The notes beneath the pieces were generated by a model that was not told the DNA's origin, searched no databases, and was given only the letters and a program-made list of their open reading frames with translations. A stretch of 64,000 nucleotides of DNA, from positions 3,903-67,902 of the forward strand of contig CAZHWM010000021.1 in NCBI GenBank assembly GCA_964535935.1. Reading direction: 5' to 3'. A program made the translations under genes and the position numbers. The DNA is from an uncultured Planctomycetales bacterium. GTDB lineage: Bacteria > Omnitrophota > Gorgyraeia > Zapsychrales > Zapsychraceae. Below are positions 8,636 through 57,741 of the stretch, piece by piece. Position 1 is the first letter of the stretch; the number at the start of each line of letters is the position of its first letter.

Positions 8636-10966
8636 ATGAATAATATCAGTTTTACACCTGCAGTATGGTGGATTGCTCCATTGGGGAGTATTACGGCTTT
8701 GAGTTTTGCATTATTTTATTATAAAAAAATGATGTCTTATGATGAAGGCACGGAAAAGATGAAGGAGATAGCAGGATATGTTCGTGAGGGGGCTATGGCA
8801 TATTTATTCCGTCAGTATCGTGTCGTGGCTATGGTATTTTTGGTATTGTGTCTTATTTTCTTTGTATTAGCGTTTAACCGTATACAAAATCCATTTGTCC
8901 CCATCGCTTTTCTTACAGGAGGATTTTTTTCTGGATTATGTGGTTTTTTAGGGATGAAGACAGCTACTAATGCTTCAGCGCGTACAGCAAACGCTGCAAG
9001 GAAAAGTTTAAACCAAGGTCTTCAGGTGGCATTTCGTTCAGGAGCAGTTATGGGATTGGTTGTTGTTGGGTTTGGTTTGTTAGATATATGTTTATGGTAT
9101 CTTATTTTAGATAAATTGGTTTATACTTCAGCTCATATGCAAAATGGTTTTTATTTATTTGGGTTACCTTTGGTGCATCCGGGGACCTCTCAGGCAAAGA
9201 AATTGGTTGATATAACTATTACAATGCTTACTTTTGGAATGGGAGCTTCTACACAGGCATTATTTGCGAGGGTTGGAGGGGGTATTTTTACTAAAGCAGC
9301 AGATGTGGGGGCCGATCTTGTAGGAAAAGTTGAGGCAGGGATACCGGAAGATGATCCAAGGAATCCTGCTACTATTGCAGATAATGTTGGGGATAATGTC
9401 GGTGATGTAGCAGGGATGGGCGCAGATTTATATGAGTCATATTGCGGATCAATTCTTGCGACAGCTGCTATAGGTGCATCGATTGCAGCACATAGGGCAA
9501 TGGATAATCCCTCTTTTGAGATATCTAAGGAAATAATGTATGTTATTGCACCTATGATCGTTGCAGGTTTGGGAATTTTTATGTCAATTATTGGGATGTT
9601 TTTTGTAAAGTGTAAAGAAGAAGCCTCACCTAAGAATCTTTTGAATGCACTTTTGACCGGTACGCTGGGCAGTTCTATTTTCCTTATGATAGCAATTGCT
9701 ATTATGGCATCAGTTGGGATGATTACTTGGGGTATCTTTGGAGCTATTATTACGGGTTTAATAGCCGGAGTTATTATTGGACAGAGTACAGAATATTTTA
9801 CGTCTAACCATTATCAGCCCACTAAACAATTAGCTGCTGAAGCAAAAATGGGTGCAGCAACGGTTATAATAGACGGACTAGCTACTGGTATGTATTCAGC
9901 TGGCTGGCCAGTGATAACAGTTGTTATTGGGATATTATGTGCATTTGGTTTTGCTGGAGGATTCTCTGATTTTTCCTTAGGGTTGTATGGTATAGGGTTT
10001 GCAGCAGTAGGGATGTTGGCTACTTTGGGAATAACGCTCGCAACAGATGCATATGGTCCTATAGCAGATAATGCGGGTGGTAATGCAGAGATGGCAGGAT
10101 TAGGGGATAAGGTAAGGGAAAGGACAGATGCATTGGATTCCCTTGGTAACACCACAGCTGCTACAGGTAAAGGATTTGCTATAGGATCTGCTGCACTTAC
10201 TGCTATGGCACTTATTGCAGCTTATATAGAAGAGGTAAAGATGTGGGCAGGCACATTTGCTAATAATGGTACATTTCTTGTTGGGGTTAAGAAATTAACT
10301 GCTGCTGCTATATCAAAATTAGGCATTCTTGATTTTGTTGAGGTGTATAGGGCTCATCTTATGAATCCGCTTTTGTTATGTGGACTATTTATTGGTGCTA
10401 TGACAGCGTTTGTATTTTGTGCCATGACTATGAAGGCGGTAGGGAGGGCTGCTGGGGCTATGGTTAATGAGGTGCGTAGACAGTTTAAAGAAAAGCCTGG
10501 TATAATGGATGGAACACAAAAGGCAGATTATGCACGCTGTGTTGAGATCTCAACGATTGGTGCCCAGAAGGCAATGATTATGCCTTCTTTTCTTGCTATA
10601 TCTATACCTGTAGTTATTGGATTAATTTTAGGCGTGCCTGGGGTTATAGGCGTTCTTTCGGGAGGGCTTACATGTGGATTTGTCCTTGCCACTATGTTGA
10701 ATAATGCTGGCGGAGCATGGGATAATGCCAAAAAATATATTGAGGCTGGACATTATGGTGGCAAGAAACTCCCTGATGGTTCAGTTAATCCTGTTCATGC
10801 TGCTGCGGTAATAGGTGATACAGTAGGAGACCCTTGCAAGGATACAAGTGGACCTTCATTAAATATTCTTATTAAGTTAATTAGTATGGTCAGTATTGTT
10901 TTTACTCCAGTGATTGTAAAGTTTTCTCCTGTTATACAAAAATGGTTAGGAATTATGTTGAAGTAA
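8636..10966 (+). CDS. hppA: membrane-bound ion-translocating pyrophosphatase
   Basis: 776 aa, ~16 TM, RBS taggagggg. Signature blocks [33 protein letters not shown] and [22 protein letters not shown]. Confidence 0.95.
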
Positions 10967-13460: not shown

Positions 13461-13499
13461 CTTATTTCACAAATCAACCTTGTTAAATAGTGAAATAAG
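13461..13499. repeat. 39-bp palindromic repeat, copy A (singlet)
   Basis: cttatttcac-aaatcaaccttgttaaata-gtgaaataag, with 10-bp perfect outer arms. It is 32/39 identical to copy C at 27099-27137. Followed by aTTTTTT. Lies 19 nt upstream of the MFS gene start. Confidence 0.8.
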
Positions 13500-16071: not shown

Positions 16072-17439
16072 CTATGTCCTTTCTTTTGTGGAGTAAAGTA
16101 TCCATAAGGTGATAGTTGGCAAAAGGGCAAATATTATTCTGTCTAAGGTTACATTAAGCCACCAGTTAATTTCAAAGTATGTATTAATAAAATAATAAAA
16201 GCTGATTATGCCCATGTATATCATTAAATAAATTGGAATAATGATAATGTATCGGTCAGATGCCTTTTTTTGGTGTGCTATTAGTAATATAAAAAGAAAA
16301 AGTAATAATCCATGCCACTGGTTTATGTTAATCAAATTCATAAAATAAGAATAGAATATAGCCCGTATCCTAAATAGAATTTCAAGTAGAGGCATAGATA
16401 ATATTTTATTTTCAAATGTGATATTTGTAGGAGCGTATATAATATAAAAAATAGCAGGTATGATAGATGTAATTGATAGGCCTGCAATGAATTTGAATGT
16501 TATTTTTTTTGCATATATGATGTGCCTTTTATTTTGATATACAAGATAAGGAATATATAAAAGGAAAAGGATGCCCGCAGATATAAGCCCTTCTGGTTTT
16601 GTAAAAGATAGTATGCCTGTGAACAATCCTGTTAGGAAACAAAATGGAGTTTCTTTTGTTTGTTTTGCCATAATAAGACATGAGATAGTTGCAAGAAGAT
16701 AATAGCCTAATACAATATCACAATACTGGCTGGAGGCTAGTTTTAGAAATAGAGGATTTGTAATTATAGCAATTATTGTTAAATATAATAGAATGAGGTT
16801 TGTATGAGGTTTGAGCATTGAGAACAATAATCCCATACTAATAAATGTGAATATAGTAGCTGTTATTGCAGGAGTTATATTAGATGGTTGGGATAGTAAC
16901 GACCATCCCCATACATTGATGAGGGGTAATAATATGGGATAATGAGGGCTTGAACGCCATAATATAGGGGAGAAGATATCTTGCCAGTTATCTTTTGCCA
17001 GAAATAAGAATCGGGCTTTTAGATTCCATACAGACCAAGCATCCCATCCTCCATAAGGATAGTGTATATTCTGTATATATAATAAAGGAATTAGTATTGT
17101 AAATAGAATGACAAATTCTATTATTTCTTTTTTATTTTTAAGTATCCCTTTATATTCTATATGGTTTTGTTTTTGTTTTGACTGCCTTTTATATAATTGT
17201 AGCCCTGCCAAGATAATGGCTATGGCAGTGTTAAATATGATTACAAAATATTGGTTAAATTGTTTTAATAGAAGAAAACTTATAAATGTGGTCTCACCAT
17301 TTATTCCAAGCCCAAGTCCCATACCAAGACATAAATGCATTAATGATGAAATTTTATATTTATGTAGTATAAGGCCTATAATAGCCCATCCTATATAGCA
17401 GGATATAAAAAAAGGAAATATGTGTAGTATATATTGCAT
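16072..17439 (-). CDS. polytopic membrane protein, possible GT-C type (ArnT/PMT-like) glycosyltransferase
   Basis: 455 aa with ~13 hydrophobic helices. It lies divergent from sugar-nucleotide modification genes and a polyprenyl-phosphate GT2. Family assignment rests on topology and context only. Confidence 0.45.
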   Translation of the reverse strand: MQYILHIFPFFISCYIGWAIIGLILHKYKISSLMHLCLGMGLGLGINGETTFISFLLLKQFNQYFVIIFNTAIAIILAGLQLYKRQSKQKQNHIEYKGILKNKKEIIEFVILFTILIPLLYIQNIHYPYGGWDAWSVWNLKARFLFLAKDNWQDIFSPILWRSSPHYPILLPLINVWGWSLLSQPSNITPAITATIFTFISMGLLFSMLKPHTNLILLYLTIIAIITNPLFLKLASSQYCDIVLGYYLLATISCLIMAKQTKETPFCFLTGLFTGILSFTKPEGLISAGILFLLYIPYLVYQNKRHIIYAKKITFKFIAGLSITSIIPAIFYIIYAPTNITFENKILSMPLLEILFRIRAIFYSYFMNLININQWHGLLLFLFILLIAHQKKASDRYIIIIPIYLMIYMGIISFYYFINTYFEINWWLNVTLDRIIFALLPTITLWILYSTKERT

Positions 17440-19067: not shown

Positions 19068-19636
19068 ATTATTTTGTCCATGAGACAGCGCTTATCCATA
19101 AAGGGGCAAAGATAGGAGAAGGGACCAGGATATGGGCGTTTGTTAATATTCAGGATGGTGCTATAATAGGAAAAGGATGTAATATTTGCGATGGTTCTTT
19201 TGTTGAGAAGGGGGCGGTTATAGGGAATAATGTTACTATAAAACATCATGTATCTGTTTTTGATGGTGTTGTTATAGAAGATGATGTTTTTATTGGTTCT
19301 AATATTGCGTTCATTAATGACAGATATCCCAGAAGTAATAGAGAAGATGAGTGGGTTTTGGAACCTACTCGTATAAAGAAGGGGGCCACTTTGGGGACTA
19401 ATGTAACAGTTTTGTGTGGGATTACTATTGGAGAGTATGCTTTTGTAGGCGCAGGTAGTGTAGTAACAAGAGATATTGGAGATTATTGTATAGTTGTAGG
19501 TAACCCTGCCAGGTTTATTGGGTATGCCTGTATTTGTGGTCGAAGGCTTGATGATAAGTTAAGGTGTTTGGTTTGTAATAGACAATATATTCTTTACAAA
19601 GACACATTAAGGATAACTGGAGGCAAGGATGCATAG
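19064..19636 (+). CDS. hexapeptide-repeat (left-handed beta-helix) sugar N-acetyltransferase
   Basis: ATG 19064 forms an ATGA overlap with the upstream stop (the track start GTG 19052 is less likely). Repeated [LIV]-G-x4 hexapeptides occur throughout (IGEGTRIW, IGKGCNIC, IGNNVTIK, IGSNIAFI). Confidence 0.8.
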   Translation: MNYFVHETALIHKGAKIGEGTRIWAFVNIQDGAIIGKGCNICDGSFVEKGAVIGNNVTIKHHVSVFDGVVIEDDVFIGSNIAFINDRYPRSNREDEWVLEPTRIKKGATLGTNVTVLCGITIGEYAFVGAGSVVTRDIGDYCIVVGNPARFIGYACICGRRLDDKLRCLVCNRQYILYKDTLRITGGKDA

Positions 19637-20360
19637 GGTATTGGTGTGTCCTATAGCATATAATGAAAATGTAAAATTAAAACGTGCAATTGAACGTTTT
19701 CTTGATAGTGGAGCACGCGCATATGCAGATTATCTTATTATTGATGATGCATCAGATGATGGTACTACAGAGATGATACAGTCATTTGCAAAGCGAGGAG
19801 TCAAGACAATTAGGCATCCTGAGCGAAGGGGGGTTGGGGCTGCGATAAGAACAGCAATACGGTATGCTCAAAAGAAAGGTTACAAAATATTGGTCATTAT
19901 GGCAGGTAATGATAAAGATGATCCTTTGCAGATACCAAGGCTTATAGAGCCTATTTTAAATGAAGGATATGATTTTGTACAGGGCTCCAGGTATAAAGGC
20001 AAGGTAGGAATTGGAGGAGATATGCCTTTTTATAGAAAGATAGCGACAAGGATGCATCCTATGATAATGTCAGCTATAACAGGAAGAAAGGTTACAGATT
20101 CAACAAATGGATTTCGGGCATTTAGTTTGTCTATTTTTGAAGATAAAAGGATAGATATAGCTCAAAAGTGGCTTAATGAATATGAATTAGAACCATATTT
20201 ACTTTATAAAGTAATTACACTTGGCTATAAATTTACAGAAGCCCCTGTGACAAAGATATATCCACCTAAAGAATTAGGATATACAAAGATGAGGCCATTT
20301 ACAGGGTGGTGGAGTATTTTGAGGCCTTTATTTTTTCTTGGTTTAGGCATTAAAAAATAG
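19629..20360 (+). CDS. family 2 glycosyltransferase, polyprenyl-phosphate sugar synthase-like (DPM1/ArnC/GtrB-like)
   Basis: 243 aa, RBS ggagg. GT-A motifs YLIIDDASDDGT and GFRAF. Confidence 0.8.
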   Translation: MHRVLVCPIAYNENVKLKRAIERFLDSGARAYADYLIIDDASDDGTTEMIQSFAKRGVKTIRHPERRGVGAAIRTAIRYAQKKGYKILVIMAGNDKDDPLQIPRLIEPILNEGYDFVQGSRYKGKVGIGGDMPFYRKIATRMHPMIMSAITGRKVTDSTNGFRAFSLSIFEDKRIDIAQKWLNEYELEPYLLYKVITLGYKFTEAPVTKIYPPKELGYTKMRPFTGWWSILRPLFFLGLGIKK

Positions 20361-20361
20361 T

Positions 20362-20430
20362 ATTCTGCACAATTTAACCTTGTTGATTTGTGAAAAATGC
20401 ACAAATCAACAAGGTTAAATTGTGCAGAAT
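20362..20430. repeat. palindromic repeat, copy B (inverted doublet, perfect 31-bp arms)
   Basis: attctgcacaatttaaccttgttgatttgtg (20362-20392), spacer aaaaatg, then cacaaatcaacaaggttaaattgtgcagaat (20400-20430). The arms are exact reverse complements. Starts 2 nt after the GT2 stop codon. Confidence 0.9.
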
Positions 20431-20459
20431 GTTAAAGGGGAGGGGAAAGTGACTTAGTT

Positions 20460-21200
20460 ATGAGGTTGTTTGGAAAGAATCCTGTTATAGAAAGGTTGCG
20501 TAGGAATCCGTCAAGTATACGAAAGATCTATCTCCAGCAGGGATATGGATCTGCTGGCTATATTTATAAAAAAGCAAAACAGTGGAATATTCCTGTTCTG
20601 TCAGTACCTAAGACAAAAATTGTAAAGATAGCGAGAAATACTAATACTCAAGGGATACTGGCAGATGTTGATGAGTTTGTATATTGTCAGTTAAATGAGG
20701 TTTTGGATATATCGGTTAAAAAAGGGCGATCTTTAATTTTTTTAGATAGGCTTAGTGATCCGCAGAATTTGGGTGCTATTATACGTGGGTTGGCATGTCT
20801 GGGAGGATTTTCTGTGGTATTGCCAACCCATGATTCAGTGCAGGTAACAGAGGCTGTTTTACGAGTTGCTTCTGGTGGAGAGAATTATGTGCCTATAGCA
20901 AGGGTTGCTAATCTTGCTAATGCTATTAGGAAGACTAAGGAGTCAGGTTTTTATATCGTCGGTGCTGTTGTAAGTGGTGGGGAACGATTAACAGGGTTGC
21001 GATTGCCATATCCTATAAGTATAGTGATTGGTTCTGAACAAAAGGGGATAAGACCGCGTATACAGGAGTTACTGGATTTAAAGGTCACAATTCCTATGCA
21101 TGCGTCTACTTTGTCTTTTAATGTTTCGCATGCAACAACAATATTTTGCTATGAAATTACAAGACAAAAACAGACATATAGGCAGGAAAGAAAAGCCTAA
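20460..21200 (+). CDS. rlmB: SpoU/TrmH-family 23S rRNA 2'-O-ribose methyltransferase (RlmB-like)
   Basis: 246 aa. N-terminal substrate-binding subdomain, then SpoU motifs DPQNLGAIIRG, IVIGSEQKGIRP and SLNVSHAT-like LSFNVSHAT. Confidence 0.75.
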   Translation: MRLFGKNPVIERLRRNPSSIRKIYLQQGYGSAGYIYKKAKQWNIPVLSVPKTKIVKIARNTNTQGILADVDEFVYCQLNEVLDISVKKGRSLIFLDRLSDPQNLGAIIRGLACLGGFSVVLPTHDSVQVTEAVLRVASGGENYVPIARVANLANAIRKTKESGFYIVGAVVSGGERLTGLRLPYPISIVIGSEQKGIRPRIQELLDLKVTIPMHASTLSFNVSHATTIFCYEITRQKQTYRQERKA

Positions 21201-25936: not shown

Positions 25937-27131
25937 GAAGTCAGGAATATTTGCTCATAGAACAGATTGGGAGCTTTCATTAAATCCAATAGCAAACACA
26001 CTCAACAGGATAAGAGACACAGGAGTTGAGGTAATAGATCTTACTATATCCAACCCAACACAGGTAAATTTTTACTATCCACAAGATATATTAAGGGCAT
26101 TAAATAAGAAAGAAAATTTAGTATATCTGCCAGTAGCAAAGGGAATCCTTCCTGCAAGAGAGGCTGTATGTAGTTATTATGCCCAAAAAGGAATAGATGT
26201 GTCAGTAGAGAATATTTTTCTTACCTGCTCTACCTCAGAAGCATATGCTTTCCTATTTAGGTTGCTTGCTGCCCCAGGAGATAGTATATTATTTCCTAGG
26301 CCGAGTTATCCTTTATTTGATTTTCTTGCAAGGATAAATGATGTGAATTTATCTTTTTATACGTTAAAATATAGTGATGGCTGGTTTTTGTCACAAGAAA
26401 AATTTAAAGAATGTTTGATAGGTAATCGAGCGGTTGTTATTGTAAATCCTAATAATCCTACAGGTTCATTTTTAACCAGAGAAGAGATAGACTTTGTTAG
26501 TGTCGAATGCATACGCAATGATATCCCGATTATATCTGATGAAGTGTTTGCTGATTACATTTTTAATTATAAGTCAGATGAGAGAGTATTTTCAACGTTT
26601 ATAGGCAATAAAGATGTACTTACATTTACATTAGGTGGCTTGTCCAAGGCCTTAGGGCTCCCACAGATGAAGGTTTCATGGATTATTGTAGACGGCCCTC
26701 ATGATTATGTTAAGGAAGCAATAGCAAGGCTTGAGGTTATTGCTGATACTTTTTTGTCAGTAAATATTGCTTCACAGAATGCATTATTTGATTGGTTCAA
26801 GATAAGTAGTTACATTCAGAACCAGATTCTTGATAGAGTGCGTAACAATTATGCAATATTAGCCCATGCATGTCAGGAGACTGAGAGATGTGAATGTTTT
26901 ATGATTGAAGGCGGCTGGTATGCTGTAATAAAGCTTAAGGTGAGGGATAATTTTGACGAAGAGGAATTTGTTATTGATTTGTTAGAAGATCAAAATGTAT
27001 TTGTTCATCCAGGATATTTTTTTGATTTTGATGAGAATGGTTATATGGTTATAAGCCTTTTGCCTCAGGGAGAGCATATGAAAGAAGGGATTTCTCGTCT
27101 TATGTCACAAATCAACAAGATTAAATTGTGA
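25920..27131 (+). CDS. class I/II pyridoxal-phosphate-dependent aminotransferase
   Basis: 403 aa. Motifs VIVNPNNPTGSF and PLP-lysine context GGLSKALGLPQMKVSW. The last 8 codons and the stop lie inside repeat copy C. Confidence 0.85.
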   Translation: MHRESKKSGIFAHRTDWELSLNPIANTLNRIRDTGVEVIDLTISNPTQVNFYYPQDILRALNKKENLVYLPVAKGILPAREAVCSYYAQKGIDVSVENIFLTCSTSEAYAFLFRLLAAPGDSILFPRPSYPLFDFLARINDVNLSFYTLKYSDGWFLSQEKFKECLIGNRAVVIVNPNNPTGSFLTREEIDFVSVECIRNDIPIISDEVFADYIFNYKSDERVFSTFIGNKDVLTFTLGGLSKALGLPQMKVSWIIVDGPHDYVKEAIARLEVIADTFLSVNIASQNALFDWFKISSYIQNQILDRVRNNYAILAHACQETERCECFMIEGGWYAVIKLKVRDNFDEEEFVIDLLEDQNVFVHPGYFFDFDENGYMVISLLPQGEHMKEGISRLMSQINKIKL

Positions 27132-27137
27132 CATAAG
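27099..27137. repeat. 39-bp palindromic repeat, copy C (singlet)
   Basis: cttatgtcacaa-atcaacaagattaaa-ttgtgacataag, with 12-bp perfect outer arms. The core cacaaatcaacaagattaaattgtg is 24/25 identical to the right arm of copy B. Confidence 0.85.
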
Positions 27138-33982: not shown

Positions 33983-34718
33983 TAAACCAATACGCCTTCA
34001 GGTTTTTCTTTCTCGTAATGGGGTATGTTCTAGGAGAAAGGCATTGGATTTAGTAAAGTCAGGGGTGGTTAGTGTTAATGGAGATATCATATGTGAACCA
34101 TCCTTTAGTATAGTGCCGGGGAAGGATATAGTTGCGGTTAATGGTAAATATGTTAAACCTGTAAATTATGAGTATGTGCTTTTAAATAAACCTGCAGGGT
34201 ATGTAACAACAAAAGCAGATAGATTTGCCAAAAAGACAGTATTTGACCTTCTCCCCAGACATTTACATGTTTTAAATCCTGTAGGCCGTTTAGATAGAGA
34301 TACAGAAGGTCTTCTTTTTTTGACCAATGACGGAGAGTTAGCGTTTTCTTTAACGCACCCTAAATTTAATATTGAGAGGCAATATTTTGTTAAAATAATA
34401 GGGGATTTTAGTAACAGAGATAAAAAATTGCTGGAAAATGGGATTATTATTGACAGCGGAAAGACATTGCCCGCGAGGATACGATATTTATGTAATAAAA
34501 GAGGGATCAGGCAACTATTTATTACAATTTATGAAGGTAAGAAACGCCAGATAAGACGGATGTTTGAGAGAATAGGATGTAAGGTGATTTATTTAAAGAG
34601 ATTATCTCATGGGCCGTTGATGCTTGGTAATCTAAGGCTTGGAGAGTGGCGACACTTAGAAGAAAAAGAAGTAGATATGTTAAAAAATTATATTGCACAA
34701 TTTAACCTTGTTAAATAG
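33975..34718 (+). CDS. RsuA/RluB-family pseudouridine synthase with S4 domain
   Basis: ATG 33975 after gcagagagg (the track start GTG 33969 is also possible). S4 region RLQVFLSRNGVCSRRKA. Catalytic motif GRLDRDTEGLLFLTNDG. The last 7 codons and the stop lie inside repeat copy D. Confidence 0.85.
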   Translation: MVDKPIRLQVFLSRNGVCSRRKALDLVKSGVVSVNGDIICEPSFSIVPGKDIVAVNGKYVKPVNYEYVLLNKPAGYVTTKADRFAKKTVFDLLPRHLHVLNPVGRLDRDTEGLLFLTNDGELAFSLTHPKFNIERQYFVKIIGDFSNRDKKLLENGIIIDSGKTLPARIRYLCNKRGIRQLFITIYEGKKRQIRRMFERIGCKVIYLKRLSHGPLMLGNLRLGEWRHLEEKEVDMLKNYIAQFNLVK

Positions 34719-34754
34719 TGAAAAATGCACAAATCAACAAGGTTGAATTGTGCA
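34694..34754. repeat. palindromic repeat, copy D (inverted doublet, imperfect)
   Basis: cacaatttaaccttgttaaatagtg (34696-34720), spacer aaaaatg, then cacaaatcaacaaggttgaattgtg (34728-34752). The arms are 21/25 complementary. The spacer and right arm are almost identical to copy B. Confidence 0.85.
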
Positions 34755-39712: not shown

Positions 39713-41260
39713 TTAGGGGTTGTTAGTTTTTTGCCTTTTTTCCATTTCTGCTATATTATCTTTGAGTTTTGCCTTTGATCTTATATCTTTTATATACTCA
39801 TTGAAAGCCTCATTTTTCCTTTGCATTAACAATCTTTTAGATAGTTTGTTTCTTTCTTTTGTATATTTATCCATATCCACAGGGATATACTTTTCTAAAT
39901 ATAGGATACAAAAACCTTTTGCTGTCTCAACAACACCACTTATTGGATGATTTTTTGTTAGGCTAAATGCTGCTTTTTGAAAATTGCTAGATATTCCAAT
40001 AGTTGGTAAATATTGACCTCTAGTAAAAATAGGTGTTTTATGAAGTTCCAACCCTAATTTTTTAGCTGTTTTTGCGAAGTCTTTTAATTGAGTTTTATTC
40101 ATTTCTGCTTTGATAGATTTTAAATATTGTTCAGCTGTTTGTCTTGCTATTTTTTTTGCCTCAAGTTTAAGTATGGTATTTCTTACCTTTTCTTTTACTT
40201 CTTCATAGTTAGGAAGATGACTTTTTTTTCTAGCTCTTAGCTGAATTATGCATATACCTTTTGGTGTTTCAAAGGGTTCCATTATGTCTCCCGGTCTCAT
40301 TTGAAATACTTTATTAAGTATTTTATAAGACCAGCCAGGTTTCAGGTTTGGTTTTTCCATACTGAAAAATCCGGTCGTATGCATTTCTATCCCGTTTTTT
40401 TTAGCTATATCCTTAAGACTGGGGGTTAATATTAATTGTTGGTATATTTGTTTTGCTTTTTCTATTATTTTTTCTTTATCGTTTTGTTGTTTTTCATTTT
40501 TATTACTTTTTTTCTCAGATTTATTTTTATTTTTTTTGCTAGGAGCAGGAAACTTTAAAGTTATATATTTTACATCTACCATAAGTGGAACCTTAAATTC
40601 TTCTTTATGTGAGTTAAAATACTCTTTTGCTTTTTTTTCGTTAAATACAGCCTTATCAATAAATTTATCAATAGGCACAAATACATAACTTACTTGTACC
40701 TTTTCATTTCTTAGTTTATAATTATTAAATATCTCTTTTTCTGAAACCGATATGCCAGCCGTTTTTTGTTCATATAATTTAGCCATCATAATTGTCTCAC
40801 GGACACTTTCTTCAAAATCTCTTGGTTTGATATGAAAGTACCCACGCAGGATACGCGTGTATATCTTATTATTAAACTGGCCGTCTTGTTGAAAAAATGG
40901 ATATTGTGCTATTGTTTCTATAACTTCTTCATCAGAAACGGTTATTTTTGCCTTTTTAGCCTCATGCAGTAGTATAAGTCTATCCCATGCTTCCCTTTCG
41001 AGATTAAGGAATGGTCTGAGTTTATCTAGGTTGTCTCCATATTGAATGAGTGCTTGAATATTTACAGCTTTATATGCTTTCTTATATTGGTCAAAAGATA
41101 TTTTTTTCCCAAATATTTTTCCTGCATAGTTAAATTGATTTTTGCCTCTGCCATTTAATAGATATGCCTTTCCTGCAAAACCGAAGGCGACAATTATTAA
41201 TATTACAATGCCCCCACAGATGCGTTTTGCTACGCCTTTTTTTCTAAGTATTTTCAACAT
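39713..41260 (-). CDS. periplasmic chaperone / peptidyl-prolyl isomerase (PpiD/SurA-like)
   Basis: 515 aa. N-terminal membrane anchor, SurA-N-like chaperone region, internal Lys-rich linker, and a parvulin-like segment (ETPKGICIIQL, ETAKGFCILYL). Confidence 0.7.
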   Translation of the reverse strand: MLKILRKKGVAKRICGGIVILIIVAFGFAGKAYLLNGRGKNQFNYAGKIFGKKISFDQYKKAYKAVNIQALIQYGDNLDKLRPFLNLEREAWDRLILLHEAKKAKITVSDEEVIETIAQYPFFQQDGQFNNKIYTRILRGYFHIKPRDFEESVRETIMMAKLYEQKTAGISVSEKEIFNNYKLRNEKVQVSYVFVPIDKFIDKAVFNEKKAKEYFNSHKEEFKVPLMVDVKYITLKFPAPSKKNKNKSEKKSNKNEKQQNDKEKIIEKAKQIYQQLILTPSLKDIAKKNGIEMHTTGFFSMEKPNLKPGWSYKILNKVFQMRPGDIMEPFETPKGICIIQLRARKKSHLPNYEEVKEKVRNTILKLEAKKIARQTAEQYLKSIKAEMNKTQLKDFAKTAKKLGLELHKTPIFTRGQYLPTIGISSNFQKAAFSLTKNHPISGVVETAKGFCILYLEKYIPVDMDKYTKERNKLSKRLLMQRKNEAFNEYIKDIRSKAKLKDNIAEMEKRQKTNNP

Positions 41261-57054: not shown

Positions 57055-57190
57055 TGACGATAATGGCAAACCCATCGTAAGGTGGGGGCCCCGTATATAA
57101 TATGTTTGCTGTATACGGGCTCCGGGAACTTCCCGGAGGCAAAGCTATAGGGTCCTTATTTTTAAGGATAGCCTAGCTGCCGAACCAAGC
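57055..57190 (+). promoter_or_regulatory. c-di-GMP-I (GEMM-I)-like riboswitch aptamer candidate with internal insertion
   Basis: GGCAAACC + 6-bp helix CCCAUC/GGUGGG capped by the GNRA loop GUAA (57065-57086). Later GGAGGCAAAGCUAUAGGG-UCCUUA-UUUU-UAAGGA-UAGCCUAGCUGCCGAAC (57135-57185). Closing pairing GGCA/UGCC. The two halves are separated by two extra hairpins (57090-57119, 57120-57138). Confidence 0.5.
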
Positions 57191-57236: not shown

Positions 57237-57269
57237 AGGCCTGTCCTTATAAAAGGACAGGCCTTTTTT
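57237..57269 (+). terminator. rho-independent terminator (expression platform of the leader)
   Basis: Perfect 10-bp GC-rich stem aggcctgtcc / ggacaggcct, 8-nt loop ttataaaa, then a T-run (57264-57269). It lies 35 nt upstream of the pseudopilin ATG. Confidence 0.85.
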
Positions 57270-57303
57270 GTTGTTAAAGAGGGTTGGGGGGAGGTATTTT
57301 AAT

Positions 57304-57741
57304 ATGCAGTTGGATGTTAGATTAAAAGAATGTCGAGGGATTTCTTTAATTGAGGTTTTACTAAGTGTATTTATTTTGTCAGTTGCAGTGATAGGAGTTA
57401 TTCGCATATATTATTTCGCAGCATATGAGATTAACCTTGCAAGGCATAGTGCCATGGCTGTTAATTTAGCTCAGGCTAGACTTGAGGAACTATTAAATAC
57501 AAAATATAACCATTTAGATACAGCGGATTTTCCTATATCTGAAAATAATGAGGATGGTTTTGTTCTTGATCCTAATGAGAATTTGAATTGTGGTATGGAT
57601 ACGAAACTTTATAGTATAGGGACTGAAGCATATATGGCTGTTGTTACTGTGTGGTGGCAGGAACCGTTCATGGGTGCTCAACGGGATGTGTCCCAGACAT
57701 TACGTACAATAATCACTGATTATGAAGGAAGTGGAGCATGA
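57304..57741 (+). CDS. prepilin-type N-terminal cleavage/methylation domain protein (PilV/GspI-like minor pseudopilin)
   Basis: ATG 57304 after RBS ggggggagg (the track TTG 57268 would overlap the terminator T-run and start only 4 nt after its stem). Class III signal peptide ECRG/ISLIEVLLSVFILSVAVIGV. Confidence 0.8.
   Translation: MQLDVRLKECRGISLIEVLLSVFILSVAVIGVIRIYYFAAYEINLARHSAMAVNLAQARLEELLNTKYNHLDTADFPISENNEDGFVLDPNENLNCGMDTKLYSIGTEAYMAVVTVWWQEPFMGAQRDVSQTLRTIITDYEGSGA

Follow-up and report, generated by a model that had tools for sequence, protein, structure and literature searches.

A dispersed inverted-repeat family of probable REP/REPIN kind and a likely associated RAYT-type transposase in an uncultivated Omnitrophota bacterium

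To our knowledge, nearly all work on systems made up of repetitive extragenic palindromes (REPs), their hairpin-forming inverted doublets (REPINs) and the accompanying REP-associated tyrosine transposases (RAYTs) has dealt with Proteobacteria, where they serve as a model of long-lived, vertically inherited "replicators" inside genomes. The architecture of REPINs and RAYTs was described previously (PMC3116915, PMC3337134). A GTAG or CGTC tag defines two large super-families of REPs, and not REPs in general (Di Nocera et al. 2013, PMC3733652). Among the RAYTs (TnpA_REP proteins), subclass 2.1 comprises long proteins with Bac_DnaA_C-, HTH_23- or HTH_28-like C-termini and no REP-like sequences nearby (Quentin et al. 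2018, PMC6006769); the same study treats it as identical to the TIRYTs, for which Di Nocera et al. 2013 (PMC3733652) described flanking inverted repeats of the type GGGGWSAS. The present analysis concerns an inverted repeat at 20362-20430 of a 64-kb stretch of DNA (contig CAZHWM010000021.1 of assembly GCA_964535935.1; hereafter the window) from an uncultured bacterium of Candidatus Omnitrophota. A REPIN-like nature of this repeat had been proposed from the sequence alone (hereafter the original prediction).

With a probability of roughly 0.85, the inverted repeat is one REPIN copy, i.e. two inverted 25-bp REP units, of a dispersed, non-autonomous repeat family in Candidatus Omnitrophota that is tied to a RAYT-type Y1/HUH transposase. 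The family is undescribed, but of known REP/REPIN kind. This is supported by its architecture and copy number, by the association with the transposase, by co-variation both between transposase and repeat and along the long hairpin, and by turnover of the elements between relatives.

For the repeat itself, a repeat search of the window returned two arms of 31 nt each (20362-20392 and 20400-20430) with 100% complementarity, separated by the 7-nt spacer AAAAATG (20393-20399). The TAG stop codon of the upstream family-2 glycosyltransferase (GT2) gene occupied 20358-20360, and the repeat began at the second base past it. The 25-bp unit within each arm read CACAAATCAAC-AAG-GTTAAATTGTG and was itself a near-palindrome with 11-nt arms and a 3-nt loop, 9 of the 11 arm positions being complementary in the window copy. 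The original prediction had described this layout correctly. Folding of the doublet as single-stranded DNA gave one 31-bp hairpin (-34.7 kcal/mol, z = -12.9).

20362-20430, no strand assigned: REPIN doublet; an ATTCTG flank plus a 25-bp unit per arm, units at 20368-20392 and 20400-20424

Searches of the window for units with up to three mismatches returned five, against 0.00 expected from 100 shuffles, and a looser search added a unit at 13468-13492. Together these make up the four loci that had been listed beforehand, namely two singlets (13468-13492 and 27106-27130) and two doublets (20368-20424 and 34696-34752).

For copies elsewhere, a degenerate unit pattern was run against a collection of one genome per GTDB species. 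Only seven single chance matches in unrelated taxa were obtained, and this scatter indicates that the organism is not represented there and that the pattern is specific. A slightly looser pattern applied to metagenome contigs returned 65 loci, nearly all from the assemblies JGI Ga0256914 and NCBI VAPK01; VAPK01 also has contigs that encode window proteins exactly. After de-duplication, 42 distinct doublets and about 44 distinct singlets were counted in the fetched loci and the window (these counts take in the window copies and 13 singlets from loci L085 and L087 of a relative). About 85 further distinct loci were found in the metagenome contigs of the same community. Density amounted to four loci in the 64 kb of the window plus two in the adjacent 12 kb, and to about one per 10-19 kb on three long contigs.

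The copies shared a rigid layout. Units were spaced 32 nt start to start in 42 of 42 distinct doublets, with loops and flanks in inverted arrangement, and the architecture of 20362-20430 (this unit spacing with flanks TATTCTG/CAGAATA) was common to 40 aligned copies from other loci. The full element spanned about 73 nt and was arranged as (C)TATYCTG - unit - 7-nt spacer - unit - CAGRATA(G). In an alignment of 41 singlets, 15 of the 25 unit positions were invariant. The flanks fell into the types (C)TATTCTG, AAATGT, TTATTT and TTATTG. No match to an Rfam family was obtained at any of the four window loci. Target-site duplications were not visible beside the listed copies. Their absence is what transposition of the IS200/IS605 type would leave.

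The stretch TTCTGCACA at 20361-20369, formed by the flank and the start of the unit, has a single mismatch to TTWTNCACA, the DnaA-box consensus given in PMC6006769. This likeness is probably a coincidence: the other flank types misfit, and the C-terminal domain of the transposase described below gives no match to Bac_DnaA_C.

Two subfamilies of the repeat were distinguished.

Subfamily A: contigs of about 35% G+C, including the window; loops CTT...AAG; spacer AAAAATG or CAAAATG; long hairpin usually with 3-6 mismatches
Subfamily B: contigs of 40-46% G+C; loops CTG/CAG, co-varying; spacer CATAATG or CATTATG; long hairpin essentially perfect

At least five types of co-varying outer half-sites were seen in subfamily B. 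Subfamily A had almost fixed inner half-sites, GTTAAATAGTG and CACAAATCAAC, and variable outer ones; the fixed inner half-sites account for three mismatches in the inner stem of the long hairpin, and a typical copy folds at about -16.6 kcal/mol. Perfect complementarity, accurately described for 20362-20430, is thus not typical of the family, since most subfamily A copies carry the three inner-stem mismatches. The perfect 31-bp copy is a minority variant, the same core being present at position 450 of L016.

For pairing models, co-variation was scored on an alignment of 40 doublets and one of 41 singlets. With the long-hairpin model, 87.5% of cells were paired and co-variation was 0.126 compared to 0.064 after shuffling; none of 500 shuffles reached this value, which was also far above slid controls. 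When the units were modelled as folding separately, co-variation did not exceed that of shuffles. The original prediction had allowed for either one long hairpin or two short ones: the 31-bp fold and the co-variation bear out the former, and the latter is left without a co-variation signal. The flanks outside the singlet unit also co-varied (TT/AA, TG/CA and GT/AC, with almost no unpaired cells; 0.344 versus 0.170). Three internal positions per half-site were binary and often unpaired in the singlet alignment. Symmetry is therefore kept over the whole element and not just inside the units.

These patterns bear on an alternative that had been raised at the outset, by which the units would be duplex operators or architectural sites for a dimeric helix-turn-helix (HTH) protein, the doublets tandem sites about three helical turns apart, and the dispersal a sign of a global binder and not of mobility. 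Dyad symmetry of the unit was strict at the fixed positions (CAC...T.AAC / GTT.A...GTG), the intervening positions varied without within-unit co-variation, and the 32-nt spacing was invariant, as such sites might require. Moreover, the variable positions of subfamily A, arranged as direct repeats, are easier to explain by oriented recognition by a protein than by hairpin stability. However, variable positions, loops and flanks co-vary along the long hairpin, which a duplex operator would not need.

The transposase was identified in the densest doublet cluster, on a contig present as VAPK010939693.1, Ga0256914_1000998 and ERZ27262694:k141_286324 of the European Nucleotide Archive (ENA) (loci L048 and L083). 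Of the six doublets listed on the 11 kb of L048, five also appeared in L083. The intervening genes encode a secretin, a tetratricopeptide repeat (TPR) protein, a histidine kinase, a response regulator and one Y1_Tnp (IS200-like) open reading frame (ORF). The latter is located at L048 9469-10388 and encodes 306 amino acids from a probable ATG at 9469. Doublets surround it at 9357-9413 (ending 55 nt short of its start), 10370-10426 (which holds the stop codon) and 10537-10593 (110 nt further), and the REP unit at 10370-10388 supplies the gene's own last codons and stop. An IS200/IS605-like RAYT gene flanked by the units, which the original prediction had proposed to look for, is thus present in the same assembly.

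The protein matched Pfam Y1_Tnp (PF01797; E = 9.5e-9). The best NCBIfam match was NF047646 REP_Tyr_transpos ("REP-associated tyrosine transposase"), aligned from position 3 to the end of its 146 positions at E = 1.1e-19; E for the IS200 model was only 0.007. The HUH motif N93-H94-L95-H96 and the motif Y153-I-H-L-N-P were invariant in 42 homologues. An AlphaFold model was obtained with a pLDDT of 82 and helices at 258-321. Foldseek against the Protein Data Bank (PDB) returned 4ER8, a complex of the E. coli RAYT with a REP hairpin, as the top match (E = 2.3e-5, TM 0.74, root-mean-square deviation (rmsd) 2.0 A over 141 columns), ahead of the IS608, ISDra2 and IS200 transposases (rmsd about 6 A for IS608). 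On these profile and model matches, the protein is a RAYT (TnpA_REP)-type Y1/HUH transposase, for which binding and cleavage of the REP hairpin are predicted. About 130 extra C-terminal residues end in a weakly detectable HTH (HTH_23, E = 7e-4; GerE/LuxR- or resolvase-like PDB matches, E 0.01-0.1), and homologues carry HTH_7, HTH_23, HTH_11 and HTH_38. The predicted C-terminal HTH may be counted in favour of operators. Against these, it is the transposase gene and not a regulator that the densest cluster surrounds.

Transposase and repeat varied together. A 78% identical transposase, either paralogue or orthologue, on a contig of 45% G+C (L019) had the same flanking arrangement with subfamily B doublets (CTG/CAG loops, CATAATG spacer), and an 84% identical orthologue in L085 was likewise flanked by units. 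Each variant cluster was recorded on one contig, and the transposase appears to be single-copy and chromosomally fixed.

Clusters such as L048, L015 and L016, with a doublet after almost every gene, also recall cassette arrays. The doublets would then be integron attC-like sites (half-sites RYYYAAC/GTTRRRY) served by a tyrosine recombinase, and ATTTAAC/GTTAAAT do fit the core-site consensus. Pfam annotation and synteny of the genes between the doublets effectively refuted this idea: these are ordinary chromosomal genes (secretin, TPR protein, histidine kinase, response regulator, XseA, Macro-domain protein) whose order is conserved in a related metagenome-assembled genome (MAG). In addition, no integrase was found in the loci, where the Y1/HUH transposase is the sole recombinase-like gene, and in the window copies are scattered singly among housekeeping genes.

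For distant homologues of the transposase, four loci at 43-48% identity were inspected. All were flanked by palindromes, which recurred nearby in three.

L091, Omnitrophota MAG: 40-nt palindrome on both sides, the 3' one overlapping the stop; other copies within about 10 kb
L093, Elusimicrobia MAG: 44-nt palindrome on both sides, the 3' one beginning in the gene's last bases; no other copies within about 10 kb
L095, Omnitrophica: 45-nt palindrome on both sides, the 3' one overlapping the stop; other copies within about 10 kb
L096, JGI metagenome contig: 33-nt palindrome on both sides, the 3' one starting six bases past the stop; other copies within about 10 kb

The L095 palindrome, belonging to a 47% identical homologue, had the tip TYAAC-N3-GTTRA and binary variable positions in common with the window unit. 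Altogether, 2997 homologues of these approximately 300-aa Y1 plus HTH transposases were retrieved; they are widespread in Omnitrophota, Elusimicrobiota, WOR-3 and Cloacimonadota. In L091 (5426-9441), the ATP synthase operon contains the homologue between its genes for the epsilon and delta subunits and a 97-aa GIY-YIG ORF between those for alpha and gamma.

Linkage of the transposase to the genome of the window was assessed by shared assembly and by synteny. The window's first gene and the transposase are located on two contigs of one ENA assembly (ERZ27262694). The related MAG GCA_054039975.1 holds both a region syntenic to the window (methyltransferase 91% identical) and one syntenic to the transposase cluster (transposase 84% identical). 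That the transposase belongs to the genome of the window is best supported by this synteny, which also points to inheritance in place. In this MAG the unit occurs mostly as singlets with AAATGT/ACATTT flanks, and 12 units were found in 19 kb around the transposase. Unit pairs spaced 38 and 43 nt start to start, not 32 nt, were noted at L085 7847-7909 and 9889-9956; the pair next to the transposase is degenerate.

Comparison of orthologous gaps between the window and GCA_054039975.1 gave the following differences.

GT2-SpoU gap: doublet in the window; perfect singlet in the relative
tRNA-MFS gap: intact singlet in the window; 13-nt remnant in the relative
Aminotransferase 3' end: singlet in the window; degenerate in-frame unit (L087, about 16650-16675) followed by an additional intact singlet in the relative

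The unit at the aminotransferase stop codon is old, given the degenerate in-frame copy still present in the relative. In a more distant outgroup from Omnitrophota (62% identity, 49% G+C), the GT2-SpoU gap had no unit and a small ORF instead. Given this polymorphism and the many copies, the elements are neither conserved gene-specific regulatory DNA nor unique to the loci of the window; relatives show turnover, and copies beyond the four loci exist together with a RAYT gene. Gaps that switch between doublet, singlet, remnant and nothing would be unexpected for conserved regulatory sites, such as operators.

For gene context, the remaining elements of the window and the neighbours of the repeat at 20362-20430 were annotated as follows.

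13461-13499, no strand assigned: REP singlet with self-complementary flanks, CTTATTT-CACAAATCAACCTTGTTAAATAGTG-AAATAAG
27099-27137, no strand assigned: REP singlet with flanks CTTATGT/ACATAAG (-11.1 kcal/mol, z = -7)
34694-34754, no strand assigned: REPIN doublet, the second of this subfamily in the window; its two units (34696-34720, 34728-34752) are separated by AAAAATG
19629-20360, plus strand: family-2 glycosyltransferase gene, upstream neighbour (PF00535, E = 8.9e-22); its stop lies one base before the repeat
20460-21200, plus strand: SpoU/RlmB-type rRNA 2'-O-methyltransferase gene, downstream neighbour (PF00588, PF08032)

The named homologues of the methyltransferase were RlmB, all from Candidatus Omnitrophota/Omnitrophica. 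The singlet at 13461-13499 is located 148 nt past a tRNA-Thr and 25 nt ahead of the start of a major facilitator superfamily (MFS) transporter gene. The one at 27099-27137 covers the end of an aminotransferase gene, including its final codons and its TGA stop (27129-27131), and a radical S-adenosylmethionine (SAM) gene follows 44 nt downstream. The doublet at 34694-34754 forms an imperfect long hairpin (-18.3 kcal/mol, z = -4.9), and its left unit holds the stop codon of an RluB-like gene (gene end 34718). Two of the four window elements, those of the aminotransferase and the RluB-like synthase, thus overlap the 3' end of the upstream gene and give its stop codon. More generally, elements were placed in short gaps between unrelated co-directional genes, 7-40 nt past a stop or supplying it, and 8-45 nt before the next start.

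This placement cuts both ways for the operator alternative. Each of the four window copies precedes a start codon by 25-45 nt, as might be expected of regulatory sites. On the other hand, the gene pairs beside them are functionally unrelated and without a common function (tRNA-Thr/MFS; GT2/SpoU; aminotransferase/B12-binding radical-SAM; RluB-like pseudouridine synthase/ABC-F), copies overlap coding 3' ends and supply stop codons, and no sigma-70-like promoter overlaps the element. Taken with the long-hairpin co-variation, operators are unlikely to be the primary nature of the repeats. In a softer version, the transposase's own C-terminal HTH may dock on the duplex unit.

The position directly behind GT2 also brings up a hairpin that arose at this one locus and acts as RNA, whether to stabilise the mRNA 3' end, as an attenuator or as a factor-dependent terminator, with convergent or secondary likeness elsewhere. 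The element begins at the second base past the GT2 stop, and RNA of the 136-nt region around it folded with a 33-bp stem (whole region -53.2 kcal/mol, z = -9.7) that leaves the ribosome-binding site of the downstream methyltransferase (GGGGAGGGG, about 20438-20446) unpaired and outside the hairpin. Transcription termination, mRNA stabilisation and mRNA turnover are among the hypothesised or reported REP roles named in PMC3733652 and PMC3479197. Against such an origin, a scan found no T-run after 20362-20430 and no terminator- or promoter-like consensus overlapping the element, and the stem is AT-rich instead of GC-rich as an intrinsic terminator would have it; that it is no canonical terminator had been noted in the original prediction. 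Furthermore, the same sequence occurs at dozens of unrelated loci in both orientations (about 22 doublets co-oriented with transcription, 11 of them in the transposase cluster, and 8 anti-oriented), and the relative's orthologous gap has a different form of the element. An RNA element that arose at this site is accordingly very unlikely, even more so than operators. A secondary, exapted RNA role is compatible with the REPIN reading and is no true rival to it: a stable stem-loop between the GT2 and methyltransferase cistrons could serve as a 3' mRNA stabiliser or a transcription barrier.

No usable bias of doublet orientation was found relative to transcription or GC skew. The window had a G+C content of 35%, almost all of its genes on the plus strand, and a GC skew that was very strong (about +0.28) and uniform. 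At 39713-41260, where genes lie on the minus strand, the skew fell to about 0.06, a pattern which suggests additive replication and coding-strand components. The transposase contig (L048/L083), whose genes all share one strand, had a skew of about 0.05, the pattern that genes encoded on the lagging strand should give.

The four loci of the window (13480, 20396, 27118 and 34724) were spaced 6.9, 6.7 and 7.6 kb. This regularity of about 7 kb is probably due to chance, as nothing comparable was seen on other contigs. Besides two tRNAs, the Rfam scan of the window matched only a c-di-GMP-I riboswitch aptamer at 57055-57184 on the plus strand (RF01051, 40.1 bits, above the gathering score), upstream of an ORF at 57268-57741.

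Several points weigh against the REPIN reading. The GTAG or CGTC tag of the two large REP super-families is absent from units and flanks. The number of copies per genome is an extrapolation, to about 100-250. In subfamily A, most copies have 3-6 mismatches in the long hairpin and the units are direct, not inverted, repeats at the variable positions, so that the hairpin is not merely tuned to be stable; some of the co-variation signal stems from subfamily relatedness. For the transposase, the NF047646 score (70.8 bits) is below the equivalog cut-off of 80. In sequence searches of PDB chains the single sequence found nothing and a profile saw 4ER8 at E = 0.21; the relationship to 4ER8 became clear only because a predicted structure was used, sequence searches being nearly blind to it. 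The C-terminal extension is absent from classical RAYTs, and the literature subclass that bears it is described as not REP-associated. The transposase gene lies outside the window, its linkage to the same genome coming from the shared assembly and the relative's MAG and not from one contig. Finally, no transposition event was seen, and an empty-site allele was not found at the GT2-SpoU gap, where L001 carries the doublet, L002-L004 end inside it, a singlet takes its place in the relative, and the outgroup is too divergent for an alignment.

The three contigs L002, L003 and L004 are Logan contigs from independent assemblies, and each of them stops within the right arm, 53-58 nt before the methyltransferase gene begins. 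These ends are presumably assembly breaks at a palindrome about as long as the assembler k-mer (31).

For a mechanism of dispersal, the E. coli TnpA_REP and the TnpA proteins of IS608 and ISDra2 served as models. By analogy with these, the element would fold into a hairpin when its DNA is single-stranded, e.g. at the replication fork. The transposase would recognise the hairpin and its foot, and would cleave and rejoin single-stranded DNA via its catalytic tyrosine, which would be Y134 when counted from the ATG at L048 9469. In this way the doublet might be copied or moved into intergenic gaps. Singlets would be products of decay or recombination, or independently moving REPs. Catalysis, choice of strand and any benefit to the host are likewise inferred.

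A broader and tentative proposal is that HTH-bearing Y1 transposases drive lineage-specific REP/REPIN populations across candidate phyla, with the HTH reading the duplex 25-bp unit in addition to hairpin recognition. Such duplex reading would explain the conserved dyad positions, the binary non-pairing positions (also seen in the L095 family) and the direct-repeat arrangement of units in subfamily A. We know of no such two-mode recognition in classical RAYTs. The HTH-bearing transposase and the conserved versus binary positions leave room for it.

The family provides a clean REPIN-RAYT example in uncultivated Omnitrophota, in which two pairs of transposase and repeat diverge together within one community and the elements turn over between a pair of related genomes. 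In the literature library searched, no paper was found that combines Omnitrophota with extragenic palindromes or REPs. Genuine REP doublets are here tied to an HTH-bearing Y1 branch that was reported as REP-less by a systematic survey, which widens both the host range and the protein diversity of such systems. Compact substrates of 25 nt and 73 nt are available for testing hairpin recognition by these transposases. In practical terms, the repeats break short-read assemblies, as in the Logan contigs that end inside the 31-nt arms, and their supply of stop codons to neighbouring genes matters for MAG annotation.

Compared to IS200/IS605 elements (IS608, ISDra2), the catalytic fold, the HUH and Tyr motifs and the lack of visible target-site duplications are shared, as would be, by analogy, the recognition of hairpin ends in single-stranded DNA. 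Different here is that the gene occurs on one contig per variant and is syntenic in the relative, i.e. it is not a multi-copy insertion sequence and only the short hairpins are multi-copy; the match to the IS200 profile is poor (E = 0.007), and the fit to the IS608 fold is worse (about 6 A versus 2 A).

With subclass 2.1 and the TIRYT-TIRtron systems, the family shares a long Y1 protein with a C-terminal HTH_23-like domain and inverted repeats that overlap the 3' end of the gene; some TIR families there are also self-complementary, moderately repeated and found in dimers. It differs from them in its true dispersed REP doublets, its unrelated AT-rich sequence and the lack of a GGGGWSAS motif. 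By its domain architecture, the transposase would correspond to subclass 2.1.

The closest described systems are the REPIN-RAYTs of Pseudomonas and Enterobacteria (Bertels & Rainey 2011, PMC3116915; 4ER8, PMC3479197). Here, in contrast, the host phylum is the uncultivated Omnitrophota, the GTAG tag is missing, the spacer is fixed at 7 nt, the transposase has about 300 aa with a C-terminal HTH versus 165 residues in the 4ER8 chain, and subfamily A keeps three conserved inner-stem mismatches. Shared are inverted, imperfectly palindromic units that form a long hairpin, many extragenic copies together with singlets, and a repeat-flanked Y1/HUH gene on one contig per variant. Co-variation links the transposase to its repeat subfamily in both, the transposase is syntenic in the relative, which fits vertical inheritance, and its best fold match is 4ER8.

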